Below, piece after piece: positions 10,239 to 62,142 of a DNA stretch of 64,000 nt; the first letter of the stretch is position 1, and the number at the start of each line of letters is the position of its first letter. Below the pieces are notes generated by a model. The model did not search any database. It had not been told where the DNA came from and saw only the letters and a program-made list of their open reading frames with translations. This DNA comes from Obrimoposthia wandeli (taxonomy: Eukaryota). Where the stretch lies: contig CDROCS010003961.1 of assembly GCA_977020255.1 (NCBI GenBank), positions 186,001 through 250,000 on the forward strand, given 5' to 3'. A program made the position numbers and the translations under genes.

Positions 10239-10715
10239 AGATATGTTTTAAGTACTTTTAACCAACTTTTGAGCTATTTTAGACATAATTTAGTACTTTT
10301 TTAAATTAATTGCCAGTACATACCGACATCTTAGCGATCACGTTTTTGATTATAGTAACGTGTAATTTATAAATATTTATATCCTACTTTCAAAAAGACT
10401 CGACTTTACAGCGCGACAGATAATTTCATCTAATCAATTGTTATATGAAAAAATGAGTTCCAAGAAGAATTTTTTGTTGAATCTGAATGCTTTAAAACAC
10501 CTACTAATGATCAAGCGAAATAATAGTGCATAATAAATTTAACATTTGGTCAAAGTGATTAACAGTAATTTGACTAATAAATCTTTGTAATAAAATTAAC
10601 TTACATATTATATTTCCCTTATTATAAGATAAATTTTATTTATTATATTTCGTGATAAAATATCCTTGGGGTTATGTTTATATATAAACATTTATTTTAA
10701 GCCCTATACAACATG

Positions 10716-10985
10716 AGTAGGTGGATGTGTCCGGTCTAATCCACACCCCCTCCCCCCACTGTCCTTTAAAACTGAGCATGTGTGTAGAGTGAAATTTCGT
10801 GCATGTGTGTGGAGTGAAATTTTCTACCCCCCCAACACTCAAAAAAACTATTTAACCCCATATAACACCCTTTAAAATTGAAAATCTCATAGTGCTCTCA
10901 AAAAAGTGAGGAAGGTCCTGAGAGGCCGTCTAGTGAGCAATACATATACAGGGTCGCGAGAAAAAATTTTCCTTATAAGAATTAA
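10716..10985 (+). mobile_element. Orphan left end of the Polinton-type family
   Basis: Starts AGTAGGTGGATGTGTCCGGTCTAATCCAC and is nearly collinear with 20440-20870, with deletions between the subterminal repeats. No matching right end or TSD. Confidence 0.9.
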
Positions 10986-17855: not shown

Positions 17856-20669
17856 CTGCAAAAGCGGAAATTCTAATATATTTTATATATTTGAAAAGTA
17901 AATTAATTTAAAAATTTTATAATGTTAAAAATTTAAACAAAAGTTTTTTAAGCATATTTTTTGTTTTTAAAAAAGTGCAGTTGTCTTGTAATTATGTGAC
18001 TGCATCTTGTCAATTTATAATCTATTAATAATCCATTATAAAATGATTTGAGAAAATGTTTCTAAATTAATTATGTTTATTTCTGAGAACTCAGTAAAAT
18101 AAGATTTCATATTACAGTTGTCAACAGAAAAAATTAGCTTAAATATAGTCAAATAGAGCATTGAACAAAAATGTATAGACATGAAAATCATATCTAGTAA
18201 AAAAATAAAATGGCTGAAATATGAAGTGGAATAACAAAATTACAAATTACAAATTTATAACCTGATGACGAATAAATTTCTCTGTAAATGAAATATAAAA
18301 GACATTGAAATTAATGTATAATTGTATTTGATTATTATTATTCATTCAATAATTTGAATGTGTATGTCGATTAACAATATTCATTTGAACAATTAACAAT
18401 TTCCTTATCAGCTAATTTATCATGAATCTAAAATACGTTTACTTAATTATCCACGATAAGATAATTAAATAATTCATCTTCTCAACTTCTGAAAATATTG
18501 ACAAATTTCATGTTCAAAATCACCATCAATTTTAATTTCTAAATAGAACTACTTTGGAAATATTTTTAAAACTTAATTCAGAAATAGTAACAAAAAATTG
18601 AGATTTTTATATTTGATTTATTGATTAATGAATTATTTATGAGTGTTAATCGAAATATATTTCATTTAGTAATCAATTTTTTCTTTGTATTAAAATTTAA
18701 ATCTCAGAACAATGTAACAATTTTTTGTTAGTTATTTTATGTTACCATTTATTTATAAATCATTTGACATATACTAAACTATTTCAAGAAAAGATTTTGA
18801 AGTATGAAATCCAAACTCTAAGAAATTGTTCAAATAAACATATTTTTATGATCTTTTAGAGTACGAAATGCATTGTTAATTTGACTATCTCAATTTTGAG
18901 TTCATCTTACAATTGTGGCATTCTAAATCACTTGCTAACGATTTAAGCAATTTTTATTTTCATTTATTTAATCGAACATAGGAAAGGCTGCTACAAATTG
19001 ATTTTTGTCTACTTATTTCAAACATAAATTCAGTATATTTTGTTTATATCAATATCATTGTAGTAGACAATTAAAACCGATATCAACTGAGTTTCACTAG
19101 TAAATTGGAAATTAATTGTCAGTTGATGGTTAGTCTTGCGGAATCAAGATAGTGTTTCTAGTGACTTAAACGACAAAGTAATAATAGCGCTGGTAGAAAA
19201 TAATTTTCATATGTCGAATGGATATGTTAGAAAATGTAATGACACACAAAATCAACTTTTAAATTAATAATTTCAAACCAAAATTTTAAATCGATAATTA
19301 TGTGGATGTTAATAGTTTATGATTAATCAATTATTATTGTGTGTATTAAAGTAAATTATTGGTCAAAATAATGTAGATTCAGAAGCAATGGACGTAAGTT
19401 AAATAATATTTTCCATAGCGATTTATCATACGCCGGTGTATCTTTTCAGTCAAAAGACCGTGTGTTTGAAGTTTGATCCAGGCTTGTTAGAGTTTATGAG
19501 ACTCCTCTAATAATGAACATCGACTGGCTTGTTAGGTCGGCTTTTATTTCCTTGCTTTGTTTATTCCGCTTTGTTTTATATGTTCTGTAGTGACTGTGTA
19601 AATCGTTTATTGACAAACAAACAGATTAAAATCAGTTTATATCATATTATCTTCTGAATGATGCTCAATATTGAGATTGTAAACAATGCTTTCATTGAGT
19701 TTGGAAAGTATGAATAAACAATTATGGATTACGTTTTTGTCAAGTGTAGAATGACCTTGATTTGTCGGTTGGTTGATGGCCATGAATAATTCCTCATGAA
19801 AATAGTATGTGATTGAAAGTTCACCATGTTTCTATAAATAAATAAAACAGAAATTGCAATTATGCAATTCGCATATTTATCAGTCTTATTTTTACAAAAT
19901 TCGAAAGATTTTCATATAAACCTCCCGATACATAAAATATGTATATATTAAAATCTTTTAATAGTTGTTAAAACTGCTGAAAATTGTTTTAATTGAAATT
20001 GACACAAGCTTTTTTAATGGGAGAATTTGATCTTCACTAATAAGGGATGACATTCACTATTTCAAAACACAACATGCTAGATTCACCAATATATTCATTT
20101 TCAAATAATCATCAAATATAAGTCATTAAACAACTGAAAATCTAATGAGTTTGAGAAAAGTATAAACCACATTGTGCTCAATGAAATAAAAAACAATACA
20201 TCACACTTTACATAAACATCTAATCCAACTTACCAAAATGTCTGAATATTATATAGCCCATACATACACATCACATACACACCAATGGCCAACACCCAAA
20301 TACTGCAGTTTAAGAAATGTTGGATCTAATTGGGCAATTCAATTTGAATTATTGTAATTCAATAAATGCAGTACAAAATTTATAATTATCAACGATCTAT
20401 TTCTGAGGAAGAATTTCCATACATTCCATACACATCATAAGTAGGTGGATGTGTCTGGTCTAATCCACTCACCCCTGTCCTTTAAAACCGTGTATGTGTG
20501 TGGAGTGAAATTTTCTACCTCCCAACCCAACACTCAAAAAAACCTAATTAACCCCATATAACACCCTTTAAAATTGAAAATCTCATAATGCTCCTAAAAA
20601 CGTGAGGAAGGTCCTGAGAGGCCGTCTAGTGGGCCAAAGCGTGCCCTCTGGGCCTGCGGAGGTTTGACG

Positions 20670-20905
20670 AGCTATACATATACAGGGTCACGAAAAAATT
20701 TTGAAAAAAAATTGTACGCGAGAATTTTTTTCGCACACTGCGGGCGCGAAAAATATTTTCCTTATCATTATTTATATCCATACATATATAGACAGAGTCG
20801 CGAAAAATTGTACGCAAGAATTTTTTTCGCACACTCAGGCGCGAAAAATATTTTCCTTATAAGAATTTATATTTAGATACATATATATAGGGTCGCAAAA
20901 ATTTT
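20670..20905 (+). repeat. About 95-100-bp subterminal direct repeats containing E2F-type GCGCGAAA motifs
   Basis: AAAAATTGTACGC.AGAATTTTTTTCGCACACT..GGCGCGAAAAATATTTTCCTTAT occurs twice, plus partial copies. GCGCGAAA (reverse complement TTTCGCGC) at 20744 and 20839. Confidence 0.75.
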
Positions 20906-20960
20906 TAAATCATCAACTACATAAATTGGAAATGATTTCAACATTTTCATTTTATTCAGA

Positions 20961-21081
20961 TGAGTTATCGTTGAGTCATAGGATGAGTCATCGATGAGTC
21001 ATAGAATGAGTCATCATGACTTAAAATGAACTTGACCTCATGATGACCTTAAATGACCTTGACCTCATGAGGTCATGACCT
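20961..21081. promoter_or_regulatory. Enhancer-like cluster: phased AP-1 sites followed by nuclear-receptor half-sites
   Basis: TGAGTCA at 20972, 20984, 20995 and 21007 (plus TGAGTTA at 20961). TGACCT at 21033, 21044, 21054 and 21060. Perfect AGGTCATGACCT palindrome at 21070-21081. About 260 bp upstream of the first element gene. Confidence 0.6.
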
Positions 21082-21343
21082 TAACTTAACCTTAAAATGT
21101 ATCCTCTGAAAAAAAAATTCTACCCTTCAAACATGTATGGTCAAGAAAATATTACTATTTTAAATCCAAAGATATATATGTATTCAAACATCAACAAAAA
21201 TTAAGAAAATACTATAAATTATTTGAATAATACGTTTTCATTGGACGTTGAACTTAAGCAACAAAAACTTAAGAAAATAATTATATTTTCAAAAAAACAT
21301 ACTCGCATTCAAACGTAGTTAAAAAATTTGATAAAAGTCTACA

Positions 21344-23271
21344 ATGTCGATTTGGATGAAGATGCGAGGTTCATCTATATAGGGATATCTCTCCAGTACA
21401 GCAGCGAACGCCACCACCGGTACAGTACATTGACTTACTTAGTCAAGACTCGTCGGTGGTGAGCGAAGAAGACGAAGGAGAAGCAGCAGCAAGAGCCGAG
21501 CTGTTGTTAGAAGAACCGCCATTGGCCAGCTCAACTCCGAGAGAAGAACCAATGAGCGTGAGAGGTGGGATACAGAGATCCCAATATATCGACCTAACTA
21601 GTCAGGATTCGATTGAGAATTGGGAAGACTGTACTCCCAGGCAAAACACAAAACCCACTCGTCCGGCAACTTCAGCAGTAGCAGCAAGGATATCCAATCT
21701 CTTCGAAAATTTTGAGGAGGCAAACAAAAGCCCCTGGAAATTGATCCCACTGTCTCAGCCGGAGATAGTACTCACACCAGACTCAGACGAGGAGCTATTC
21801 ACCGATGACGTTCTGTCGGATGGTGAGGATGACTTGACTCCATTCATCGACGAATGGATACAGCCAAGTATCGGAGCCCCAGGAGCCAACGATTCGATGG
21901 TGGCAGAATTGGACGAGGACGAGTGGCGCCTGTTCACCGATGATTGGGATGGTCTCACTCCCTCTGCAACTCCAACTCCGATAGCCGACAATACGGTGCC
22001 TGATTCGTTCAAAAGGCCGCAATCTCCGATACGTCCTGTTAGGAGAATAAAGGTGACGAATGAGGTTAGTCTATTAATATATTTAAAGTGTTTTTTATTT
22101 TCATTTTTATAAACTTCAACTAGATTTGGCACCGTCAGTGACCACGGTGGAGAGGCTGATTGAACCACAGTACTTGGCGAGTCAATGTAGCCAGGATGAT
22201 CCCAGGATTCAGCAGCGATACCTACCGACCCCGGCTAAATTTGAGGTAAATTATTATAAATTATTTAATTATTTTAATTATTCGCATAGGAAGCCGAATT
22301 GGTGGAGGAAATTTGGGAGGAGGCAACTCTCAGACAACCCCTCGATAGGAAACAAGCGGCGGTTAAGAAACCTCGACGCCATCGGGTCAAAACCCACACA
22401 GTCCATCGGAAGAAGGCCAAGTTGGTGAAACAGGCTAACCTGCCCGTCATCGAGGTAAATTATTTATATTTTAAAATTTTATTTATGTTTTTTGTTGCAG
22501 GAACCAATACAATTAACTGAAGAGACATGGGGCAAAATTTCTTCTTTCCCGCAGAAGCGAACGAGGTGGGCTGCTGTACGGAAAACGAGGCGCCTTAGAA
22601 AGGCGAAATCTTGTCTGCTCAAATCGACCAAAGTAACGATAGAGCGGCAGGAAAAACTTCCGTATCAGATTATTGAGGTAAAATTTAGATATTTAAATAT
22701 TTTTGAAATAAATGAACTTTATTAAAAATTTTATTAATGTTTTCTTTTGCAGGAACCTGTCCGGATAATTGAGGAGGCTTTGGAAGAAATTACTCCTTTC
22801 CCCAAGAAACGGACGAAGCGAGCAGAGGTGAAGAAGACGAGGCGCTCGAGAAAATGTAGCACCTCAATTGGCCATTATTCTTAGGCGGTCATTGGACGGC
22901 AGGAGATTCTCCCATCTCCAGTGGATGACGATCTAATTTTATACGAGAGGATCCCAGTCTCACCGATCGAGATTAGTCCGCCATCAAGTCAACGACGCCT
23001 ACAGGAGACATCACCGGCTTCTCCTCGTCCAACAACCAGCCAGAACTTAAAGAGGGCCTGGGATGAAGCTAGATTGGACGAATTCCAGGCGGAACTGGAT
23101 ACACCGGAAATGCTTACAGATTCGTGAGGGCAACATAATGCCGTCTCACGCCAGCTTCAGCGTGAGAAGGAGGAGAAACAGAAGAAAGCTCCGCGGAAGA
23201 GGAAGGCTACTGCTTCTATGTCGGGGCCATCAACATCGGCTGCACCTCCTCCCAAAAATTTGCAGCAATGA
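21344..23271 (+). pseudogene. Element gene A: 5-exon, disorder-like acidic-then-basic protein with two SIM-like motifs and three repeated exon modules
   Basis: Exons about 21344-22064, 22124-22245, 22290-22454, 22501-22677 and 22753-23271, separated by AT-rich GT-AG introns of 59, 44, 46 and 75 bp with GAG|GT donors. In-frame stops at 22882 and 23125. Probable 1-bp losses near 21350-21365 and at 22123. Confidence 0.75.
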
Positions 23272-23598
23272 TGACTTCGTAAAGATGTTTAAGAATATAA
23301 TTTATAAAAATTAGTTTCATATGTTTTCTTGTTAATATTTATTTAAATACCATCTTTAGGTTTATTAAAATATCAAGATGAAAAAAATAGTTAATTTATT
23401 CGACTGTGATTGGATTAATAAGGAATCATTTAAATTTTTTTAGGTTTAAATGTAAATGCAATGATTAGTTATAGATTTATTAAACTTTCATTTGATACAT
23501 AAAAATATATCATTTCATTGCCTGTGATTGGATTAAAAATGTCTTAAATTTATATATATATAGGTTCAAATTTATTAACCTCTTCATAATTAAAAAAA

Positions 23599-23904
23599 AT
23601 GGAATTCGTTAAATTGCAAAGTTTGGTAACGAAGATAGAAACAAACATCAGAATAAATGAGAAGAAAGGGGACTTAAGAAAGAGGATCCTCAATCAAAAT
23701 TTGTATGCTGCTGTTGCGACCGAGTGGACTCGCCGGGTGGAGATACAAGATAGGAGGCTAGCAGAACGACGTCGAATCGTGGAGTGGAATAAGAAGATCG
23801 AATTGGAAAAAAGGAAGGTGGATGAAAAAAGAAGATAAGAGATGGAGGATATTCGGAGATCAGCAAGAAAAAGAATCCTCCAGATTAAACCGGATATTTT
23901 TTGA
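23599..23904 (+). pseudogene. Element gene B: small basic, coiled-coil-like protein (about 100 aa)
   Basis: ORF 23599-23838 continues in frame past one TAA to 23904. Preceded by a perfect 15-bp repeat CTGTGATTGGATTAA (CCAAT box) at 23404 and 23522 and a TATA-like tract. Confidence 0.55.
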
Positions 23905-24024
23905 TTATTATTTTGTCTTTATTGATTAGGTTACATAATTGTCTAAATATTTTACATAATTGTTTAAATATTTTACATAAGCATACTAAATATAAACAAT
24001 TTTATATATAATGTTTTTTGTAAA

Positions 24025-24245
24025 ATGGATAATAAAAATTGGAATAAATTATACATAAAATTATCTCCAGATTTAATGGAAGATTATAAAAAAATATTTT
24101 TCAGAAAATGATACTGAGGAAATGGTTGGATATAAATTATGTAATTTAATTTCGAAATATTTAGGTATGTTTACATTTAATATAATTTATTTTAATATTC
24201 ATAGGAGAATTGACAATATATGCCAATCTTAACATGAAAGACTGA
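24025..24245 (+). pseudogene. Possible small spliced element gene (about 60 aa)
   Basis: MDNKNWNKLYIKLSPDLMEDYKK, a frameshift in an A/T run, FSENDTEEMVGYKLCNLISKYL, a 40-bp GT-AG intron (24165-24204), then GELTIYANLNMKD*. Confidence 0.4.
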
Positions 24246-24333
24246 ATCCTGAGTACTTTGTTATTTTAATAAATTTTTGATTAATGATTATTTTCGTTAT
24301 AAACAACGGGATTTGTTGCAAATTTAGATAATT

Positions 24334-24822
24334 ATGCAGGAATATATCATAGATTTTGAGGCTTTCATTAACAAAAATGATGATTATATTATAAAATAAT
24401 TATTTATTATGGATGTATGCGACGTTTTTCATCCTTTGCATTTCATATTTCAAATAGATATCCCGTTTAAAAGTTTAGATTATAAGAAAAAATTTACTAA
24501 TTTATATCTAACTAATTACTTTCATTTATTAAAATGGAAAGAAGGACATAAGGCTTTTTGTGAAATATGTATTTTCGATACAATAACATCTAATTTTGAT
24601 ATAGAAAATGGAATTTTTCATGTTTTAGATGAAATGGATGGCAAAAAGTATAAGACTTTAAAAAAATATTTTCCCAAATTGAGGTTGAATACTTTAAATA
24701 TTTCACATGATCATCTATTAAAAATTCCACGAAATATTTGCTGTCCATATCGTAATCATGGTGACCATTGCGCATATAAAAAATGTTTAAGTCTTTCTTA
24801 TTATTACTTGACATGTAGATAA
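24334..24822 (+). pseudogene. Element gene C: DEDD/DnaQ-like exonuclease-fold candidate
   Basis: ATG at 24334 is in frame with ORF 24409. YIIDFEAF...YIIK*L has one TAA (24397) at the expected KEL position. Later HLLKWKEG and C-terminal CPYRNHGDHCAYKKC. Confidence 0.55.
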
Positions 24823-25052
24823 ACAATTCTTCTAATTGGAGAAATTCATTATTAAAATTTTACAACTAATTACAAATAAGCCTTTTGATTGGAAGAATAA
24901 AAATATTTTTTTCAACCAATAACAGATAAACAATCCTTCTCAGTGGAGTGATAAATTCAATTTTTTAATCCAATAGGAAAAGAGCATGTGTGTATAAATT
25001 TTAGTATATAAGCAAACACTTTCTTCATTTAAATCCCCGACTATTTGAAATA

Positions 25053-25723
25053 ATGACTATGGTAAGAATCTATACTTATTATTTCTTTATTAATATTTAT
25101 GATTTCAGATTACTTGTAACCTGTTTCCAGCATATTGTGGTGCTTCGGCTCTGCATGGAGGAGAGACCTACATGGAGATAATGTCCGCCTACTATCGGAC
25201 AACGTCTTGCGGGCTTCACTTCTTCGTCTGTCCCTTCTGCAGAACAATGGAGGAGAAGGAGTTTCGAGACTTCTTCGGTGAACATCGAGCTCATCTATTC
25301 TGTTTCACGGCCAACAACAAGAAGAGGGATATCGTGCAATTGGTGCGCGATTCGCAGGCCGCTCCAGCACCTGCTCCAATTCCAGTTGCAGTGATTCAAC
25401 CCGTTTACGGTCCTGCGATTGGTCCTTTTCTCCCGACTCCTGATTCTGCTGCACCATCCCCTCAAATGATTAACAATGAGTGGATGAATGACATCTCTAA
25501 GGAAGATTTTGAGGAGATGGCGCCAGCAACCCAATACTCAAACAATGACTGGATGGAAAATATCACCCAGTCAGATTTCGAGATGGAGCAGCCTCAGTGG
25601 AGCGATAACTCCTGGTTGGAGACCATCGAAGAATCCGATTTCGTCGAGATAACGGACGACAGCTTGATGGATTCCGTCAATGAAGAGGACTTCGTACCAG
25701 CTACAGTTGGATTGCCTTCATGA
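25053..25723 (+). CDS. Element gene D: 2-exon protein with a Cys/His-rich N-terminus, Pro-rich linker and four acidic W/F repeats
   Basis: ATGACTATG|gtaaga, 47-bp intron (25062-25108) ending ttcag|. Exon 2 is in frame with ORF 25172 and uninterrupted to 25723. Upstream CCAAT boxes and TATATAAG at about 25005. Confidence 0.7.
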
Positions 25724-25816
25724 GGTATTTTTTTATTATTATTTTTCAGATTCTTTTTTAAAATTGTAATTATATATATATTATTTTTAATTAAATATAT
25801 ATTATTGTAACTATAT

Positions 25817-27528
25817 TTGAACGAGTCTTTAAAAAATTTAACGGCATCTTTAAATGCATGGCCAATCACACAGTCAGTGTTCTCAGCTTCGGTTAACGAT
25901 AAGGGGATTTTTCCGTATAAAATTATAAAAACAGAAATCCCACCCATAACTGATTTTGAGGGTGTAAGTCTTCAAGACTATAATGAGGCCCGTACATTTT
26001 GGGCGAATAATTGTCGAAATCTTCTAGAATATATGCTTTATTATATGAAGTTAGACATTTATCTTTTAACTGATGTTTTTGAGTCCTTTCGTGTAAAATC
26101 TTTAGCAGAAGATGGGCTAGATCCCATGCATTTCTTTAGTTTACCTGGTCTTTCATGGGCAACAGCAATAAAAACTCTTAAAATTAATATTGAGTTACTG
26201 CAAGATCCCGCGATGTATCAAATGTATGATTATGGTATACGCGGTGGAATAACTTTTGTCAACCAACATCATGTTGTCAAAAATCAATCCACGGAGATTC
26301 TGTACATCGACATTAATAATTTGTATGGGTGGGCGCTTACTCAACCTCTACCTGATGCCAACTTTAAGTGGGTTTATGATGAGGAAGAGTTGAATAAGTT
26401 GATGACAGATTTGGCTACTGTTGATACAGTTTCATCAGATATTGGCTATTTCGTTGAGGTTGACTTATCAATCCCTCCCAATGTGGATGATAAATTAGAT
26501 GATCTCCCTGTAGCACCTGTTCATCAATGCCCACCTAATTCAAAGGTTAAGAAATTACTGTTAACACATGAAGACAAGTTGAATTATGTTGTGCATTGGC
26601 GGCTTCTTCAATTATACTTAAAGTTGGGAGCGAAAGTTACTCGAATTCATCGTGCTATAAGCTTCAGTCAAAACTTTGTGTTTAAAGACTATATTGAGAA
26701 GAATTCTAGAAAACGTAATTTGGACATTAGCAAATTCGATCGACCTTTTTACAAGTTAAAAGTATTAGTCTTTTTGGAAAAACGGTTGAGGACTTGCGGA
26801 AACGTATTTGTCTACGGTTTTGCAATGATGAGCGTAAACTAATAACATATACTAGCAATTACAACTTCAAGCGTAGTTTTACAATTGCAGATGACTTGGT
26901 AGCATTGTTATTAGGAAAACAGAGTATTTGTCTTGATCGATCGAGTTATATAGGTCAAACGGTTTTAGACATTTCTAAACTCAGATTGTACGAGCTTCAA
27001 TACATAGAATTAGAGAAATATCGACAAGAATTCAATTGTGAGATCAAAATCGCAGCTGGGGACACTGACTCTTTCTTTTTAGAATGTAGGAATGTTAGTT
27101 TAAATAATCAATGATTTCCGGCAATGTTTAGGGACAACTTACTAAATACCCATAAATATCCCGCTAACCATCCTCTACACTCTATGAGTTTAAAGGATAT
27201 TATCGGGAAATTTAAGGATGAAAGCGAGGGACAGGTTTCGTATGATGATTGTATTTTCCTATGCCCTAAATGCTACAGTTTACATGCATCTAATAATACA
27301 TGTTCAATGAGAGCAAAGGGTGTGGGAAGAAACAATCTTACACATGAGGCCTACCGGAAAGTTTATGATACTGGGTGTATTGAAAGCGTTGAGCAAACTA
27401 GATTTATTTCAAGAGCCCATCAACTGTATTCCCATAAATCAACCAAAATCGCTTTGAGTAGTAATGACGACAAGCGCTTTTGGGTAGAAAAGAACGCTAG
27501 CCTGGTTTATGGACACTTCCGAATTTAA
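25817..27528 (+). pseudogene. polB: Protein-primed family B DNA polymerase (pPolB), N-terminally truncated and frameshifted
   Basis: KGIFPY, YMKLDIYLLTDVFESFR, GLDP.HF.SLPGLSW, RGGITFV, YIDINNLYG (motif A), YKLK/SLFGKT across a shift near 26765 (motif B), AGDTDS (motif C), GKFKDE, RAKGV, ALSSNDDKR. Confidence 0.95.
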
Positions 27529-27790
27529 ACGGTTTTCATTTTTTGATTTTTTTTAGTTTAGTTTTTTAAAATTTTAGGTCTATATGGCACTTTGACTCTA
27601 ACTTTTTGTTATTTCAATATATCTTTTAGGATGGACCTTATCTTTGCTGACAGATCTCATTGTGATGTTGTGTTTATTAAATGTATTAAAAAATTCGTCT
27701 TATTTCTTTTATTATTTTACCCTTATATTTTTTATGGATTTAAAAAATAATTCAAAATAAAACATTAAAAATATTTATTTTTGTAACACA

Positions 27791-28120
27791 CTAATCATTT
27801 TGCAACGATAACCATAAAATACATAAATGTCCACAGTTTCTCGTCGCAGGATCCTGATATTGTATCTTGTTGTAAAATACTCTTCTTCGTCCTTTTTGAA
27901 TAGTTGAAACAAGTTTGTGTGGATAATACATTGTAAGTGGATCAAATACATGTATTGTCCACTCTCTAACATAAATAACTATCCAATGTTCTCCTGGTAA
28001 ATTCGAAGTATGAGTATTGATAATGTAACCTCCAGATTGAAAAAATGGAATCATATCAATAGGATAAACTCCATTGAATTTATCACCCAAAACCTTCTTT
28101 GCTGATTCTTGTACTTGTAC
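27791..28120 (-). CDS. Adenovirus-like (adenain, C5/Ulp1-type) cysteine protease, 5' end damaged
   Basis: F.GVYPID, IINTH...GEHW, FDP and QYQ.....CG.LC give the His-Asp-Gln-Cys catalytic set. No start codon is retained. Confidence 0.9.
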   Translation of the reverse strand, partial: VQVQESAKKVLGDKFNGVYPIDMIPFFQSGGYIINTHTSNLPGEHWIVIYVREWTIHVFDPLTMYYPHKLVSTIQKGRRRVFYNKIQYQDPATRNCGHLCILWLSLQND

Positions 28121-28122
28121 TT

Positions 28123-28269
28123 AAACAAATTATTAAAGTTCGATTCCTTGTTAGCTTCCTGATACAAATCATCAATTATTATTACATCTTCGTTTTTCAA
28201 TCTTTCACACCAATTTGCATCAAATCTTTCAATAAATTGTATTCCCTATTCCACATCAAAGACAATTAT
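28123..28269 (-). pseudogene. Packaging ATPase (A32/FtsK-like) stump, Walker B region only
   Basis: Translation ...LKNEDVIIIDDLYQEANKESNFNNLF matches the Polinton ATPase hhhhDDL..EA......LF motif. No Walker A. Abuts the protease. Confidence 0.65.
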
Positions 28270-28274
28270 CAACA

Positions 28275-28637
28275 ATGGACGATAACCAACGGGTATTAAA
28301 CGATGAGGAAGATATAGAAATGTTCGAAGAATCGGATAAGGATATGTATGAAGAAGTGAAACAATATTTCAAATACAAAGTCAGATTCTTGAAGAAGGCT
28401 CAACTGAGTGCTTTAGTAAATCCTGTGACAATTGAAAGAAGAAAGTTCAGCTACTATCTATCAAATATTCAAAAACCAGATTTTCAATATCTTAAAGAGA
28501 AAGTTGAAAAGGCAGTTCCGAATTTCACTTTCAATAAGAACGTATTTTATATCCGAGGAGCCGATGAAGCATTTCTAGATGACTATGGAAGATATGTTGA
28601 TTTGATTCGTTTCCGAAAAAGAAGCAATGGACTCTAA
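28275..28637 (+). CDS. Element gene E: unknown 120-aa protein with an acidic N-terminus
   Basis: Intact ATG-to-stop ORF inside the TSD-bounded element. No recognised motif. Confidence 0.6.
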   Translation: MDDNQRVLNDEEDIEMFEESDKDMYEEVKQYFKYKVRFLKKAQLSALVNPVTIERRKFSYYLSNIQKPDFQYLKEKVEKAVPNFTFNKNVFYIRGADEAFLDDYGRYVDLIRFRKRSNGL

Positions 28638-28860
28638 CAATTCGACTTTATGGTTACAAGAAAGATGAAATGGGAACAAAGTTGCCTATGTGGAAAATTG
28701 AACGTGCTCATATTTCAATGTTTTAACTTTTGCGTGTAATAAATTGTAATCGGTTTTACTATGTTTCCTTCATTTAATAATCAGTTTTATTTTTTAAATA
28801 TTTGTATCTTATATGTATTTTGTATAAACATTGTTTTTTAATCAGTTTCCTTATTTTAGA

Positions 28861-29271
28861 ATGGATTCTCTTCTGAGATGTGTAGGAAATTTTTATTATC
28901 CAGAAAGAATTTCAAAAGAAAAACTATGTAATATATTAAAGAAGCATCAAATTATACGAATTATGAATCCTGTGAAAATATCAAAAGTGGAGAATAAATA
29001 TCTCATCGAAATTTTAACAACATCTGATATTGATCAATTGAAAAATATTTTGGGATTTTACATTCCTGATTATGTATATGAAGGAAATTGTTTCCAGCTT
29101 GAAACTGATCCCAGTCTGGATTTTAAAAATTATCTAGGATATTTGATTGCTCCAATTCTAGATGAAGAACTATGGAATATCTCAATACGTCTCAATGGAT
29201 ATTTTGCTGATGATGGGAAAATGCAGCCTCTCTGGACTTTGAGTGAAGCCAATATGTTGTTTTATGTTTAA
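28861..29271 (+). CDS. Element gene F: unknown 136-aa TIR-proximal protein (OB-fold SSB candidate)
   Basis: Intact ORF with ATG right after ttattttag. Two further decayed homologues in this window, each beside a TIR. Confidence 0.7.
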   Translation: MDSLLRCVGNFYYPERISKEKLCNILKKHQIIRIMNPVKISKVENKYLIEILTTSDIDQLKNILGFYIPDYVYEGNCFQLETDPSLDFKNYLGYLIAPILDEELWNISIRLNGYFADDGKMQPLWTLSEANMLFYV

Positions 29272-30899
29272 TAAATATTTTGAAAAATAATTTTGACTCG
29301 TATTTTGTTTTTTCTCCTCTAAATTATATAGATTTAATTTTTCTCTCTGACCTAAATATTTAACATGTAGTAATCTAAAATCTATCATAAAAATAGTAGT
29401 AATATATTTGAAATTTCGTCTGTGATAAGCCGCCGGGGTTAATATGGATTCCAGTGGTCTTCTCTAACCACTTTTGAGATTCGCTGTAAAATTTTTAAAA
29501 ATTATGGGGGAGGGTGAATGGAGACATACATACACGAAATTTCACTCCACACACCTACAAGAAATTTCACTCCACGCACATGCTCGGTTTTAAAGGACAT
29601 TGGGGGACCCCCTTCCTTCCCCCTTTGGGTAGAATGGAGACACACATACACGAAATTTCACTCCACACACCTGCACGGTTTTAAAGGACAGTGGGCGGAG
29701 GGGGTGTGTATTAGACCGAACACATCCACCTACTATCATAAATTAAAGTTAAATTAAATTAACACTTTAATTTAGTTTTCTTTAATAAATAAATGGATTT
29801 CAAATATAATTATATATTTATTTACCATAGGAAAAAATAAGCACCTTAAAAGCTTTTTAAATAATTTACAATTTTGTACCTTAAATATATATATAATTAT
29901 AGCTTGATAGCAATTCTTCAAAATTCAGAACCTTTTTGAAATACAAATTTTCAACCATGGTTTTTTATCATATAATATACCACAATTTTTTTAAATTAAG
30001 TATACATACATATTAACTACCATAATTTAAAATTCAAACAAATTAATCCTATTTATCGTCTCTTTTAAAATTGTCATTTTGCAGATCTGTGCTGTTATTT
30101 GAATAGTGAGACAAACAATTTATAAACATATTATTGTACATTCTATTATAAAAACTCTTAATTCAAAATGTTTAAAATCATAATAACGATAAAAAAACCA
30201 CATCTTTATAATTTATTTACCGAGTTATCCGGACTTATTCTTAGTTTATAGTTTATTCTAGATCTGTTTTAGATCCCTTTCATATGTTGGACTATGCGAA
30301 TAAACTATCAGGAACCAAAATTATTGCAAAATGTTTCTTATATAATATTTAGTAACTTGTATACATTTATTTTCGTTGTCATTAATGTATACAAATGAAT
30401 TCCTCTAATATAAATAAAGATAAACATTTCAAAAGTCCGACATATAGATTTTACTGTTCGGATAGTTAAGATATTTATAATTGTAATTTAAACAGAAAAA
30501 ATACAATTATTTACATGACATGATTATTTTAAAAAATATATTCAGAAACATAAAATTGACTTTTTGGTATTTCTATAAACATTTCCTATATTTTATTGAA
30601 CATTATCTGGTTTAGGAAAACTTTAAATTCTGAATATAATTGAAAATGGTAAATTATTTTCTCAAACTTTAAATGGATAGGATGGGTGGCTTTTTTCATT
30701 GAAGTTGCACGATTTAATAATTATGCCCAGTGAGTAAACATAACTGGCAATGTTCGATGAACAAACGTGTCTATTCAGAAATGTTTCTATTGTTAGTATT
30801 TGATTAGTATTATGAATATTTGACAGAATTCTACTTCTTATAAATTATAAAAGCATAATCATCGTTCAGAAATTCTTAGTTTGGTTATTGGAGATTTAC

Positions 30900-35529: not shown

Positions 35530-35699
35530 CCGAGCCCTTTGCACCGAAAGGCGCGAAAATTTTTTAGGGGGGGTAGCCCCCCTTGTCCTTTAAAACCGTG
35601 CATGTGTGTGGAGTGAAATTTCACTCCACACACATGCACGGTTTTAAAGGACAAGGGGGGAGGGAGGGGTGTGGATTAGACCGGACACATCCACCTACT
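35530..35699 (+). mobile_element. Orphan Polinton right end containing a perfect 84-bp palindrome
   Basis: Ends GGATTAGACCGGACACATCCACCTACT. 35577-35660 is a perfect loopless inverted repeat centred on GAAATTTC. Confidence 0.9.
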
Positions 35700-36279
35700 G
35701 TCGTCCACACACTTTGGAAACCGCTTGTCTAAATTGATACAGTTAAAGAAAACTTTTATTGTATACCAAAAATGATGCATACATTTTATTTTAGAATTTA
35801 TTTATTTATCAATTTGCCATTTAAAATAGATAGGCAACAGTGAATTTTTAATACAAATAATTTTTATAATGAAAGAGATAAAACAATCCAATGTAACACA
35901 GCTTTTGATCTGCTCAAATGTTTGACGAAAATCGTACTGTACATTCTACAAACAGCCTCAGAAATTGTGAAGTTATTCGAAAAACATTACACGACAGCGT
36001 CAAAATTCGTCATGTCGACTTTCAATGAATTTAGACATCATGTTTTCAGCCTAAATTCAGTAGACATTTAACTGATAAGTCTTGGGTAATGATACTAATG
36101 TGGATAACGATTATCGAGACTCGATATGATATGGATTAAAATTTATAGTTTTGTTTAAATATCTTAATAAAAGACTAGGCCTTATTTTAAATAATTTTTA
36201 TTTGAAGAAAGTATTTGAATATTAATATTATAACAATTTTATAGAAAATGTATGAAGCTATTGAAATATGAAGCGTTAT

Positions 36280-49079: not shown

Positions 49080-49770
49080 GATCATATGATCATATATAAT
49101 CCTGAAACTTACTAAAGATAAACGTTGTGATATATTAAAAAGGCATCAAATTATAAGTGTTGAGAATTCTATGAAAATATGAAAAGTCAAAAATAAATAT
49201 TTAATTAAAATTGTAGCAAAATTTGATCTTGATCAGTTCAAAAATATTTTAGAATTTTACATACCTGATTTGAAAAAAAATCTTTAGAGATTGAAACTTG
49301 TTTCTAGAGATGAAGCTAGTTATGCGGTTTGTATATATTTAAATAGAAACATATATGATATGTCAATACATATTAATGGATATGATGTTGCTGCTGATGA
49401 AAACATACAGCGTTTTTTTTATAAAGCTAATATGATGTTTTATATTTAATATTTGTGTTGATTTAATAAATGTCTTAAAATTAATTTTTGTCTTGTGTTT
49501 TGTTATTTTTTTAAAAAATGTATATAGCTTTGATCTACATATTTTTGCCATAAAGAGCGATTGAAATAAATTTGATAGACAGGGATAAACAATGATATAT
49601 ATTACATATGATCAATAAAAATAGATAATTTTTTAAAAAGATAATGCACACAAACTCCATACTCCAACATAAAATTTTATTTCATACACACATACGCGGT
49701 TTTAAACGATATAGGATTGCTAACTCTTCTTAGAAGTGGTGCATGATGTGGATTAGAACGGACATAATTA
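49080..49770 (+). mobile_element. Old decayed Polinton right end: gene F homologue plus eroded TIR
   Basis: CDILKRHQII...KNKYLIKI...DLDQFKNILEFYIPD...ANMMFYI is homologous to 28861-29271. CACACATACGCGGTTTTAAA...GTGGATTAGAACGGACA at about 49685-49765. Confidence 0.7.
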
Positions 49771-53899: not shown

Positions 53900-54453
53900 A
53901 AGATAAAATTTATTTAAAAAATGATAAAACATCATATTAGCTTCACTCAAAGTCCAAATCTTATCTTATCTTATTCCATATATCTTCATCTAAAATTGGA
54001 GCAATCATATAACCTAGGTCATCTCTAAAAGCCAGACTGGTATTAGTTTCACACTGGAAAGAATTTTCTTCGTATACATAACCAGGTATGTAAAATTCCA
54101 AAATATTTTTTAAATTGATTAATATCAGATGTTGTTATAATTTCAATTATATATTTATTTTCCACTTTTGATATTTTTACAGGTTTTAAAACTCGTATAA
54201 GTTGATGCCTCTTTAGTACATTACAGAGATTCCCTTTAAATTCTTTTCGGATAATAAAAAGTTTATATATATATTAGAAAAGGATCCATTCTAAAATAAA
54301 GAAACTGATTAAAAACAAAATGTTTATAATAAATATAATTTATTACATGCAGAAATATACAAATGAAAGAAACACATGCACGGTTTTAAAAGACAATGGT
54401 AGCCCCAGGGGAGAGGGGGAGGGGGTGGACTAGACCGGACATATCCACCTACT
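53900..54453 (-). mobile_element. Polinton end fragment: gene F homologue (minus strand) with its 5' end facing a TIR
   Basis: Reverse complement of 53930-54330 aligns with 28800-29270. The TIR ends GACTAGACCGGACATATCCACCTACT at 54453. Confidence 0.85.
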
Positions 54454-56522
54454 TACAGTATACTGCAGGTTCCTATGGGAATAAGGTAATTAAATTGATT
54501 TGGGCCAGTTTGAACGCTCTGCGTAGAGTTCTTAAGATTTACACATCTCGTTTTGTTATTATCGGACATATTTCAAGTTTTGTGGTAATATAAAAGCAAT
54601 CTAAATTAATAATAAGTCAATAAACAAATTTAAACAGAATTTATTAAAAAAATAAATACCCTTTATCTACAAGATTAGTGAATGAAAGAGGAAGTAAAAA
54701 TAATATTCACAAAAGTGAATCTTTCTTAATAATACGATAAAAAAGAACAGAGATAAGAGAAAAACCCCAAACAACAATTAACTGAAAGTTTCCATATTCG
54801 GTAAACTTTGCTTCTAGGTCGATTTTGAGCGTCATTTATTTCTTGAGAGTCAATGAACAATTTCGCGGTTTTCCTTAACTGTAATATTTAGAAGCCAGGA
54901 ATAAATAGAATCTGTTAATTACAGCAGATCGGTAGATGGAATGAACAACAAAGCATCATTAATAAACTTTTTTAGAAGAATTTTCTTAAAAGAAATTCAT
55001 GGGTGAAAAACATTAATTTCAGCTTGAGAAATATTATCCTAATTTTGACTGCATTCAAATTGTGCTAGCCAAGTAGGATTTAAATTTAAACTGTTGCAAT
55101 AAATATAAAAACAATGGAAATCGAAATAAATAAATATATAAATTATGTCACATTCAATTAAAAATGGTTTCTGAATAAATATTTATTCATTTTAATTTAA
55201 TGAAAAGATGTAAATTAAAATAAATTAAATGAAAAATAATTCAAAACTTAAAAGATAATTTTATTTTTATTTCTGTATCATTTATTGACAAGTATTTTTA
55301 AGTATAGTTAAAATTGATGTTGGTAAATCTTTGTCATTGTATTGAGGAACTTTTTGTCAAGTATGAAGTCCATATCTTGAGTGACGTTGTAAAACTTGCA
55401 GCAGTTAAAATTGATGTTGGTAAATCTTTTTCATTGTATTGAGGAACTTTTTTTTCATACACTTTCATATTGCATTTGTCTTAATTGATCGAAATAAGTT
55501 TCACTTTCTATACAAATAAACAAAATATTAAATGTATGGTATAAGTTATTTATTTGACGAAGACCAGTTTTGTGAGTATAATACATTTGAGTACAAATTG
55601 CATATATTATATGATGCTTTTAAGATGAAAAACGACATGATGAGACAATTGACAATTACCAGCTTGATGTTTGTGAAGCAATTAATCAGTATTCAGGAAG
55701 CGTGGTCTTTAAAAAAGACATTTTTATAACTATAAAGTTCCCATTTTATACAATTTCAAAAAATTTATATATTTGACAACTCATCAGTTTATTAATTAAT
55801 CTCAAAGAATTTATGGTTTCATAAAGAACCATGAGATAATATGTCATCTTTGGCCGTCTTTTTATCTTCGTGAAGCAAAGATGAGAAAACATTTAATGTC
55901 AGATTAGATTTTCCCGTAGGTTCAATCAAAGCGTTTTGATTCAAAAGAAAAATAAATCAGTTTATAAGCAGTCTTATATAATATTGCTTCAAGCCTAAAA
56001 ATCGTCGGGATAAGAAAGGAATAGTAATCGTAAGGTTGCTTTTTAAACATATTTATATTTATAATTTTTTTTTAAATTGTTGAATTGTCAATGAACATTG
56101 ACTTATTTATTTTAAATATTAGTAAAACATTTTATTTCAGTATCCAAACTCTCGTACTTGTTGGGTGTCCTGTTTATTGAATCATAATACAACCTTGCAT
56201 TGTTTTAATTGCGCATATTAGTTTGTATTTGAATACATAATTAATAATTCTTAAATCCACTGCTTTGATTTAACCCCCGAAATATAAAATTACTTTGTTA
56301 AAACTCAACAAAGATTTGTGTATGACTGAGAAGATAAATAAAAGATAAGGATAAAATCAGTAAACATTAGTCTAGAATATCACATCGTGGATGTTTTATA
56401 GCTTTCATATCTTAAAATATTACTTATATAAAAATAATTAATAAATAAAGGACTTTAATATTCATGTTAAAAATTCAGTTCAATAATGCAAAAAAAATTA
56501 TATCGTCTTTAATATTCTAAAG

Positions 56523-58960: not shown

Positions 58961-60841
58961 CTGAAGCATTTAACAATTATCAATGGATATTTCTATGCAT
59001 TATATATATCAGTTATTAAGCGTTTGAACTGACTTAGTCATTGTGCCAGAACAATATGCACAATGGTCGTGAATTGAGAGAACGTTTAGGTATATAATTT
59101 GTACTTTTCCCTAACAAAAATGAAACACAAACGAAACAAACGAAAATCCTAATTTTTAGTAATACGATGAAATTTGTATGATCCTGAAGAAACCAAACTA
59201 GATTAATCTAAATTGACTAATACAATTTATTTATAGAACTATTTGAAAATTAATAATTGGGTACATGAAAGTACAGTTAAACATGTATAGTGCGAATCGA
59301 TATTTTGAATTTTTTTTATTGTATACCCCTTTTTCAAATTCACATATTTATATATTGATAAAACTATAAGCTTGTGAATTGGTGAAAATTAAGTTGAACT
59401 ATCTGAAGATTTATAAAGTGTTAAGATAACTATTTAATAAAATTCAATTACTGACTATTATAAGTCTATAATCCCCATTTAGAAATTCTTAGAGCGGTTA
59501 TTTCAATCTATAATAGTTCAGTGGTAGAATGTGATACTTTGTAGTAGTGAGACTCGTTATTCAACTAATTTTCTCATGAACCTAACAAAAGTATTTTCTA
59601 ATAAAATAAAATTTAAGTATATTTTGAAACATATTTAAATAAATATATTTAATATTAAGTTACAAATATCTTTGTAAATACGAACATATTCACTTTCTTG
59701 ATATGGTCATTATACAAACCAAACTAAGTACTTATATTTTCAAAAATGTTAAATTACTAACATAAATAATTGTAAATAATTGTAAACCCGACGAAAGTTT
59801 TGCAGTGTCCACTTGACAAAATATTAATCCGAAAATATCAACCTGAATATATAAAAATAACTTCAAATATTGAAACGTAGCTCTCCATTATTTTTAGCGA
59901 TCACCAGTCATTTCCTTCATTTATTAATTTGAAATTGACGATTGAAAATTTAATGTATTTCTAACTGTTAGCTGATTAAAGAAATAACTGATAATTGACT
60001 ATTGATAGTTTAATTAGATATTATTGCTAAAAATACCTCAGTTAAACGACGAAGAAATGAAATTTTATATTATAATTATATATGTTATTATACGTCTCTA
60101 GCATTATTTTGTGTATTATGTAAATCCTGAATAAAAGTTTTCTACTAAAATACAATTTTACATTAAAATATTCGAATACATTGATTTTTTTAAAATGTTA
60201 TCAAATCGTATGTTGGTGTATTAAAAAGAGAATTTTATATTTAATCGGTAGCCAATGCATTTTTAAAATATATATTGTTTTATGCCAACGGATCTTAGAT
60301 ATATTCAGTGAATGATAATTAGGTTTTTAGCTAATTATTTATATCTATGTACACCAATAAAATACTCAAATTCTAATCTCAATAAACAGTCAACAAAATC
60401 CTTGGAAGTATTTCAGTTTGTAAAAAATCTCAATTAATCACCAAATGTAAAAATAAAATGTCCCAAAATCTGTAATCAGATTGAATCTTGATATTGACTT
60501 TGGCATTCCGCTGCCTCGACAACTAATGTACCTGAATTCTGGCATAAATTCGATACAAATTGTCTTTCTTTGATCTCGTTACAATTTGCTTCACATATAT
60601 CGCTACTTGGAATCGCTTTTTATTGGATATAATGATAATCCTGCTGAGTAAAGGTGACAATAAGTTCATCTTTCGAAAATCTTTATCCTAATCAATTATC
60701 AAACCATAATGGCTTCGTTTACAACTTTTACTACACAATAATTCAACACATCTTGGAGGAACGGGTTAAAAGTGCTTTTTTTATAAATGAATTTTTGGCC
60801 CGATCAAGCTTTATATGGAATGTGAATCCGGACAATAATCA

Positions 60842-61045
60842 TAGGCGGATGTATCCAGTCTAATCCACTCCCTCCTCCATGGGGTAACCCTGTCCTTTAA
60901 AATCGTGCATGTACGTGGAGTAAAATTCCATGCATGTGTGACAGGTTAAATCTACGCCAACCCCGTGGTGGATGAGGTAGATTTAACCGGACAACATGTA
61001 CGGAATTTCACTCCACACACATGCACGATTTTATAGGACAGGAGT
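60842..61045 (+). mobile_element. Orphan Polinton left end forming an imperfect long fold-back
   Basis: TAGGCGGATGTATCCAGTCTAATCCAC (TIR variant). 60889-60954 pairs imperfectly with about 60977-61042 around a 22-nt loop. Confidence 0.8.
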
Positions 61046-62142
61046 GCTCACCCAAATTCACTAAATTATTTTTATTTTCAACAACACTATCACAAACTAG
61101 GATACATCGACCAACAAAATTATCAATTTTTCAACTCAAAACATCGACATCTAACAGCTAAGCACGCTTCCACACACAAGCACATGAAAGTACAGAAAAT
61201 ATTTGGTACCAATTGACCAATCGCAAAATCCATGTGAATACGTGATTCAGCCAAATAATTCATATCTTCACCAATTTGTGCTATTAGTACAATTTCAATG
61301 GATTATAAAAGTATTTAACTTGAATAATTTAGTAAATTGTAATTTTATATGTTGTGATTAATTATATTATCAAAATCTATAATAATTTTTAATGTTATTA
61401 TATTAGCTTTCAATTTAAAAAAAACTTAACATTATTTTTGAATAAGACAATATACATAAATTTTGGAATAGTCAGGCAGGGTTTCCATATTTTTAAAATT
61501 GTAATGCAGTTTATATATCAAAATATTAATATGAATGTACTTTTTTAAACGTTATATTTTCAATACAATAATATTAATCACATAGTATTAGTTTTTAAGT
61601 GGTAATTCTTTTTTTAACGTTTTCTTTGAAAATCTTTAAAACAATAGTCACAAATATAATCATTGTTACATTTGTTATTGCTATATATATTTAAAATCAT
61701 TTTAAAAATTGGTATCTGGCATCTGATATGATGCAACAAAATTATTTTTAATGTACACATTATGTATATATGTGGGGTATATTAAGAGAACTGGTTAAAT
61801 CATACTAAAATGTGGCTATTTGAATGACAACAAATTAAAGTATTCCATTTGTTAACATAAGAAGTGAGTCAGATTTAGATGTCTTGACAGATAATATATC
61901 AAATAGTTATTAACTTTATATTTTAAAGGCATAAAATCAAAATACAAAACCAATTTACCAATCGATTTATTTAATTATACATTTAAAAATCATCACTACA
62001 TCAATAACCTCATCTCCTACAGCACCCATTTAAAACAAACCCTCAACAAAAATATTATGGTTAATCCCACTTTCACACATAACCGCAATCCACACAACTC
62101 ACACAATATATCAATAAAATCGTTACAATCGACATATGCTAA

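Follow-up and report, generated by a model that had tools for sequence, protein, structure and literature searches.

In the accessible text of Barreat and Katzourakis (2021; PMC8097293), intact Mavericks of vertebrates show no introns, and in that of Widen et al. (bioRxiv 10.1101/2022.07.12.499685) the core genes of nematode Mavericks are stated to be intronless, while their cargo genes bear introns. For the alpha adintoviruses and the OTU-pfam03175 PolB class, splicing of the PolB genes is unmentioned in the main text of Starrett et al. (2021; PMC8502044) and Krupovic et al. (2024; PMC11161782). According to its accessible text, a prokaryotic gene caller was chosen for one large survey with the reasoning that endogenous viruses have no introns (PMC10120064), and surveys judge elements as intact via intronless open reading frames (ORFs; accessible text of PMC8097293). 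The present analysis deals with a Polinton/Maverick copy in a 64,000-nucleotide stretch of Obrimoposthia wandeli DNA (contig CDROCS010003961.1, positions 186,001 to 250,000), the whole of which is called the window. As judged from the DNA, the usual description of Polinton core genes as intronless does not hold here, with predicted introns in the genes of the DNA polymerase (pPolB) and the protease. The lineage very likely carries inherited short GT-AG introns in a gene called gene A, in the 5' part of the polymerase gene and at the start of the protease gene, which would be spliced by the ordinary spliceosome of the host. The affected genes would thus likely need the host splicing machinery to yield proteins that are usually encoded in one piece.

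A first-pass annotation of the window had proposed spliceosomal introns of a Polinton lineage, which its copies inherit and which escape ORF scans, and the conservation of the splice sites together with the fit of the reading frames makes this very probable. The window copy is a broken fossil with deletions near 21338, 23266, 25800 and 28125 and several stops, and the argument therefore rests on the family copies. Besides the family of the window copy (family 1), a second Polinton family with a polymerase 55% identical to that of family 1 was found in the same genome (family 2). A genome search with an outside protease gave only family 1 among the 150 scored matches; family 2 was found via PF03175.

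Predicted introns of the protease and polymerase genes

The protease gene of the window copy is represented by one feature:

27791..28121, minus strand: exon 2 of the putative adenain-type protease; the micro-exon and the 42-bp intron are deleted in the window copy

In the longer copies of family 1, the gene starts with ATGAA, followed by a 42-bp GT-AG intron and then the protease frame (28/29), and in family 2 a 38-bp intron was found at the same position (30/30); the proteases of the two families are identical at 61 of 110 residues. Read without splicing, the start codon runs into a stop after two codons in every copy (28/28 in family 1, 30/30 in family 2), so that the protease would come only from spliced RNA. 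Exon 2 of family 2 contains no methionine in 23 of the 25 copies with the catalytic motif, and in family 1 its first methionine is codon 24, behind a conserved motif. The outside comparison covered 14 distant matches among 98 outside loci. In three intronless distant relatives (L278, L283 and L304) the protease starts in one piece with MNSDEI or MNTQEI at the capsid stop, which is the same layout minus the intron, and most of the other distant matches also have an in-frame methionine. The profile scores of the protease lie under the cut-off (PF00770, E 0.003 and 0.046), while the His and Cys motifs are visible and the position behind the capsid gene fits. The predicted start-codon intron shared by both families is the best single evidence for function and age.

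For the polymerase gene, the following features were determined:

25053..25061, plus strand: predicted exon 1, a 9-nt micro-exon with the start codon; ATG in 28/28 copies, TATA-like box at most 60 nt upstream in 28/28
25062..25108, plus strand: predicted intron 1, 47 bp, phase 0; GT in 28/29, AG in 29/29 copies; flanks with 28/48% GC
25109..25724, plus strand: exon 2 (gene C of the first-pass annotation), with a Cys/His domain and acidic repeats; stop at exon codon 205 in the window copy
25725..25816, plus strand: start of predicted intron 2, phase 1; truncated by an approximately 2-kb deletion, which also took exon 3, intron 3 and the terminal-protein/vOTU region
25817..27528, plus strand: remainder of the catalytic exon, in three frames or pieces; PF03175, E 9e-15

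The first-pass annotation had assigned the introns to three separate genes. That several genes are affected holds, but the extent was understated, as gene C is, on the sequence evidence, the 5' part of the polymerase gene and not a separate gene, and the core protease would be spliced as well. As had been claimed, removal of the introns restores the reading frame both for the ATGACTATG micro-exon joined to pPolB exon 2 and for exons 2 to 5 of gene A. In the longer copies, position 25724 is followed by an intron of 69-120 bp, an 87-nt exon, mostly a 47-bp intron and then the polymerase frame, with both sites kept in 26/29 copies for intron 2 and in 26/28 for intron 3. The phases fit: the length of exon 2 leaves a remainder of 1 on division by three in 25/29 copies, exon 3 measures 87 nt in 26/29 and the exon-4 motif lies in the matching frame in 15/28. 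Residues 4-74 of the family-2 polymerase, which is a single frame of 1,212 codons, align ungapped to exon 2 (17/71 identical, E 2e-6), and this was found at 6/6 family-2 polymerase loci. Searches with exon 2 yielded neither a significant match in Pfam or NCBIfam nor a longer homologue, and the Atlas scores stayed below 0.9. A GT-AG stretch of 25 bp at 25725-25749 was rejected as intron 2, because it is too short and the conserved acceptor lies further downstream. One copy contains a fresh in-frame duplication of 108 nt, comprising exon plus intron, within the polymerase leader.

Further observations concern the polymerase itself. The leaders carry QLGGG (L063:1560-1900) and QTGGA (L239:242-423) motifs, which we take to resemble adenain cleavage sites; the leader may be cut off by the protease of the element. 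In family 2, a 49-bp GT-AG segment (L233:5759-5808), in frame upstream of the polymerase methionine, overlaps the start of an oppositely oriented TATA-binding-protein (TBP)-like gene and is a candidate for either a 5' intron or a divergent promoter. In the family-2 polymerase (L233:5858-9493), residues 525-566 also form a stretch similar to endonuclease VII (PF02945, E 2e-5).

The metagenomic contigs L238 and L239 (50-53% identical in the polymerase) fall into one clade with the two families, P0002 and P0003 (support 98/96) in a pPolB tree of 27 rows, the midpoint root of which serves for drawing only. L239 pPolB shows four predicted introns of 46-50 bp around 66-nt exons, two being repeats, and L238 pPolB four of 40-50 bp, of which one pair lies in the leader and the other within the terminal-protein/vOTU region. 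This second pair coincides with frame changes of the family-2 polymerase tblastn match inside conserved domains. L240/L241 contain a 51-bp candidate intron in another gene. These differences indicate that the intron content varies within one clade. The introns appear to have been gained rather than lost, as suggested by the intronless outgroups, the tree itself not polarising the change. In the one longer copy scanned, no introns were seen in the integrase, ATPase and capsid genes. Related elements without introns in the coding frame, with predicted introns in the leader only, or with predicted introns in both the leader and the terminal-protein/vOTU region form a testable series for the gain and multiplication of introns in a nuclear DNA virus.

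Gene A, gene B and intron composition

Gene A comprises five exons and four predicted introns:

21338..22064, plus strand: exon 1; promoter and start codon deleted in the window copy
22065..22110, plus strand: predicted intron 1, 46 bp, phase 0; GT in 27/28, AG in 28/28 copies; both sites in 27/27 subfamily-2 copies, at 44-45 bp
22111..22245, plus strand: exon 2, 135 nt; phase 0 open in 47/55 copies, the other frames in 1 and 0
22246..22289, plus strand: predicted intron 2, 44 bp, phase 0; GT in 28/29, AG in 28/29; retention disrupts the frame in 55/55
22290..22454, plus strand: exon 3, 165 nt; phase 0 open in 48/55, one other frame in 15/55
22455..22500, plus strand: predicted intron 3, 46 bp, phase 0, paralogue of intron 4; GT in 29/29, AG in 28/29
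22501..22677, plus strand: exon 4, 177 nt; open in 54/55; a repeat unit resembling the start of exon 5, with a 73% DNA match to 22726-22844
22678..22752, plus strand: predicted intron 4, 75 bp, phase 0; GT in 27/29, AG in 27/29
22753..23272, plus strand: exon 5; broken in the window copy by stops at exon codons 44 and 125 and a deletion near 23266

In 20 of 24 other copies, gene A starts with an ATG behind a TATA-like box located just upstream. The ATG at 21344 was rejected as start codon, as it is private to the window copy (0/24 others) and out of frame; the true start was lost by the deletion at about 21338. The acceptor of intron 1 (ending at 22110) is also lost in the window copy and sits, in the family, 13 nt upstream of the one called in the first-pass annotation. 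The resulting 59-bp version (22065-22123) was discarded, with its AG at 22122-22123 present in 2/29 copies and a stop six codons into exon 2. The exons are open mostly in phase 0 (35-54 of 55 copies), and whichever intron is retained, the frame is disrupted in 54-55 of 55 copies.

Because conservation among near-identical copies reflects inheritance rather than selection, two subfamilies of gene A, which are about 89% identical, were compared. Of the 29 and 30 copies fetched, 1 and 3 truncated and 4 intermediate ones were dropped, leaving 24 and 27. Fixed exon differences between the subfamilies fall on third positions of the spliced frame in 45 of 66 cases (p 8e-9); the counts are 18/24 in the tested part of exon 1 and 14/22 in exon 5. 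The intron interiors diverge faster, at 19 of 169 sites compared to 66 of 1146 exon sites (p 0.011). By this pattern, the exons of gene A are under purifying selection in the predicted spliced frame. Introns 3 and 4 can be aligned to one another along with the exons that follow them and are, as judged from this alignment, copies that arose via tandem exon duplication and not through separate gains. Together with the fresh 108-nt duplication in the polymerase leader, this points to tandem duplication as one route of intron multiplication.

For gene A, neither Pfam nor NCBIfam contained a significant match, a longer homologue was not found either, and Atlas scores were below 0.9. Its exon 1 (window 21420-21610) contains two YIDL(L/T)-SQDS motifs, which presumably resemble SUMO-interacting motifs, and exons 3-5 contain basic repeats like nuclear-localisation signals. 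Four sequence runs over 21200-22458 span introns as well as exons, and GT-AG ends are absent from the 15 joints listed, beside which there are 87 more; the runs resemble DNA contigs and have no bearing on splicing.

A further intron had been proposed in a small gene between gene A and the polymerase gene:

24025..24246, plus strand: small gene B with a candidate 40-bp intron (24165-24204); frameshifted in the window copy; ATG in 24/25 copies

Its GT is present in 25/26 and its AG in 24/26 copies, with both ends in 23/26, and the GC contrast to the flanks (22/32% GC) is small. The 40-bp intron is weakly supported by the sequence.

Six introns of 59, 44, 46, 75, 40 and 47 bp had been proposed in the first-pass annotation, and five of them were found at these sizes with GT-AG ends and 11-17% GC, while the 59-bp one gives way to the 46-bp version of the family. 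For comparison, the flanks of the gene A introns contain 42-55% GC. Conservation of donors and acceptors, a check set beforehand, was observed for the five, with both ends kept in 23/26 to 28/29 other copies of the element; across the family copies the range is 23/26 to 29/29. The features of U2-type introns that were seen are GT-AG ends, a pyrimidine-rich 3' end and a frame restored by removal, which fails for the 59-bp version and is weak for the 40-bp candidate. All eight junctions of gene A, pPolB and the protease fit in phase. A chance scan for GT..AG segments with at least 80% AT and flanks of at least 35% GC gave three places on the plus and one on the minus strand of the 9.4-kb element region, all within 22.0-22.8 kb, and six on both strands of the other 54.6 kb.

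Weighing of splicing and rival explanations

Several observations speak against inherited, spliced introns. Splicing is predicted from the DNA sequence, no spliced transcript was seen, and the conservation among copies that are 91-97% identical is mostly inheritance and not selection. Between the gene A subfamilies none of the 16 splice-dinucleotide sites changed, yet at the intron rate this corresponds to a p of 0.15 and is not significant alone. In 13 of 28 copies, which are decayed, the pPolB exon-4 motif is missing or lies in a different frame, and exon 4 comprises an in-frame methionine within 27 codons in 12 of 15, so that a leaderless polymerase could arise without splicing. The outside polymerases P0006 and P0152 show a similar Cys/His pattern in one frame, the match of which to exon 2 is not significant (E 0.04-0.05; reversed control 0.098). 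The interiors of the two protease introns align at 30 of 38 letters and are thus less diverged than the proteins suggest, which may be explained in part by AT bias. Exon 1 of gene B is open with the right phase in just 10/25 copies, and since the frame also reads through the 40-bp segment, this intron is not needed for an open frame.

Among the rival explanations, the capture of host genes as DNA together with their introns survives best, although it is unlikely. It would resemble the cargo of nematode Mavericks, which according to the accessible text of bioRxiv 10.1101/2022.07.12.499685 bears introns and lies near the left repeat, where gene A, lacking a family match, is also located. For pPolB and the protease, as core viral genes, capture is impossible. 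The first-pass annotation had considered it for gene C, which on the present evidence is the N-terminus of the element's own polymerase, and the core protease would be spliced too. In the case of gene A, all 40 scored DNA matches are element-like copies with 91-100% identity; only the best matches were scored, and a host paralogue may exist beyond them.

A second explanation, put forward in the first-pass annotation, is that packaging or genome-size pressure specific to the element keeps the introns minimal. Of the measured introns of families 1 and 2, 9 of 10 are shorter than 80 bp in most copies and none is kilobase-sized as in KCNQ, the host gene on the minus strand around the element. The sizes given for the KCNQ introns (6.5-41 kb) were confirmed (about 41, 6.5 and 9 kb), but they are misleading as a yardstick, because 10 of 17 well-supported host myosin introns measure 39-58 bp. 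These were taken from ungapped protein alignments of at least 50 bits, in which only introns of up to 1,500 bp are visible, with five from a near-duplicate contig excluded and weaker rows ignored. Host myosin VII is 60-67% identical to proteins of many phyla, and the planarian intron peak at 45-85 bp given in the accessible text of PMC13594981 is not counted as evidence here. The introns of the element match the minimum size of the host, and no special size pressure is needed. Moreover, the length of pPolB intron 2 varies between 69 and 120 bp from copy to copy and the elements span 9-17 kb. Altogether, size pressure is quite unlikely, and less probable than capture.

The segments could also lie between small ORFs that are separate, as AT-rich spacers, promoters or poly(A) regions, with GT-AG ends by chance. 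No spliced transcript was seen, the genome contains about 70% AT and a similar scan gives the six places outside the element; the methionine inside pPolB exon 4 would fit as well, and for the 40-bp segment of gene B this is the best explanation. It does not account for eight junctions in phase, for an exon 2 that forms the polymerase N-terminus in family 2, for a protease intron common to two families, of which family 2 has no other methionine, or for the frame shifts of L238 falling on introns, and is very unlikely for the element as a whole. Insertion by a host introner transposon after integration, as reported in the accessible text of PMC11957031 for dinoflagellate Maverick-Polinton-like elements, is the least probable explanation, since the positions are common to all copies, the protease one even to two families with 55% identity in the polymerase, and a mutual resemblance was shown for introns 3 and 4 only, their exons included.

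If inherited introns are removed by the host spliceosome, RNA polymerase II would transcribe the genes from the TATA-like boxes, and splicing would be intron-defined at the 39-58-bp size of the host. The polymerase precursor would consist of the Cys/His leader, a low-complexity linker and then the terminal protein-vOTU-polymerase part, and the protease would be made from spliced RNA only. The introns were likely gained in nuclear ancestors of the clade, kept once their sites had become indispensable, and multiplied through tandem duplication of exon-plus-intron units. A benefit of introns in expression, or an escape from the silencing of intronless RNA, is possible. More tentatively, and with considerable doubt, it can be proposed that one entire clade of animal Polintons depends on host splicing for core functions, that the protease intron is an old obligatory gate which could time capsid maturation, and that the polymerase leader keeps gaining and multiplying phase-1 mini-introns. 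In such a clade, intron gain could be followed live in a lineage of DNA viruses, with movement limited to hosts able to splice introns of 40-50 bp.

The element and its comparison with known systems

The remaining features of the window copy are as follows:

20434..20439: left 6-bp target-site duplication ATCATA, based on the identical hexamer at 29735-29740
20440..29734: Polinton/Maverick copy, a 9.3-kb deletion derivative of a 14-17-kb element, within a 41-kb KCNQ intron
20440..20514, plus strand: left terminal inverted repeat, starting with AGTAGG; inverted match to the right end, termini shared by longer copies
23602..23900, plus strand: small basic coiled-coil-like ORF without visible intron and without family match
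24334..24822, plus strand: accessory ORF with a counterpart in family 2 (located behind the protease there; tblastn E 7e-19), presumably DEDD-nuclease-like; one stop in the window copy
28122..28247, minus strand: fragment of the packaging ATPase
29640..29734, minus strand: right terminal inverted repeat
29735..29740: right 6-bp target-site duplication

The element is a Polinton/Maverick. AGT-type termini and a 6-bp target duplication of this type are present, and other copies show the duplications CCCATA and GGCTAT, one copy having one mismatch. In a DNA search, all 40 scored matches, the best of thousands of candidates, were 91-100% identical, and the elements range from 9 to 17 kb. The longer copies (about 14 and 17 kb) contain the polymerase, the protease, capsid-like ORFs, an integrase with chromodomain, the ATPase and a TBP-like gene. 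The protein-primed family B polymerase in the window (PF03175, E 9e-15) has 1258 relatives at E up to 1e-30. The integrase, with PF00665 at E 2e-11 plus the chromodomain in a longer copy, is gone from the window copy by deletion. The A32/FtsK-type packaging ATPase lies over the cut-off in family 2 (PF04665, E 8e-6), while the family-1 fragment reaches E 0.0016. The capsid-like ORFs, which gave no Pfam, NCBIfam or PDB sequence match, fit in size and order what we take to be double and single jelly-roll capsid genes.

A TBP-like gene is located beside the ATPase in both families (L069:5910-6593 and L229:4225-4683; PF00352, E 3e-11 and 5e-13) and is deleted from the window copy. Behind the polymerase stop, window 27560-27640 is rich in AG and GT and could hold a further small spliced ORF. 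Fragments of the terminal repeats and of the ORF at 28.8-29.2 kb also occur at window 10700-10970, 35570-35700, 54230-54460, 60820-61050 and 49100-49270, some being short palindromic end-to-end remnants. Nested or adjoining Polinton copies were seen at L067:8590-8930 and L339:1760-3100, including insertions into the polymerase gene of another family. Family 2 (L229-L234, L339) is younger, with copies 98-100% identical; the polymerase and capsid modules are divergent in family 2 and converging in family 1, with termini and 6-bp duplications of the same type.

The literature search gave no account of inherited introns in the core genes of Polintons; subscription papers and supplements outside that search could hold one. 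The accessible main texts of PMC10748475, PMC12220804, PMC6431247, PMC11161782, PMC8502044, PMC11296320, PMC12721341, PMC11244446 and bioRxiv 10.64898/2026.07.28.741278, supplements excluded, describe no spliceosomal introns in these genes. Since surveys look for intronless ORFs, spliced lineages would score as decayed or truncated, and polymerase leaders would be mis-annotated as separate genes.

In adenoviruses, the mRNAs of the terminal protein and the polymerase obtain their start codon from a tiny upstream exon spliced to the main frame, as predicted here. Adenoviral introns are long, the leaders are shared and there is no integration, whereas the introns of the element are local and minimal.

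The following comparisons extend as far as the accessible text of the cited papers. The introner-invaded Maverick-Polinton-like proviruses of dinoflagellates also carry spliceosomal introns inside Polinton-like elements (PMC11957031). In contrast to those mostly young post-integration insertions, the predicted introns here are old, position-conserved and family-wide, and they gave no hint of a repeated intron family (their sequences were not searched for across the whole genome). As in nematode Mavericks (Widen et al.), a GC-rich gene with introns, here predicted ones, lies between the left repeat and the core module; the predicted introns in core genes are not shared. With the vertebrate Mavericks (PMC8097293), the element shares pPolB, ATPase, integrase, the putative protease, the gene order of the putative capsid module, AGT-type termini, the 6-bp target duplication and the size range; contrary to them, pPolB and the protease are apparently split and a TBP-like gene is present. 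The alpha adintoviruses and the OTU-pfam03175 PolB class (PMC8502044; PMC11161782) likewise comprise a PF03175 polymerase, the N-terminal part of which is a terminal-protein and OTU-like region; in pPolB the OTU motifs were read by eye. The Cys-pair ORF upstream of PolB would here be a spliced leader of PolB and not a free-standing 'Oncoid' gene.

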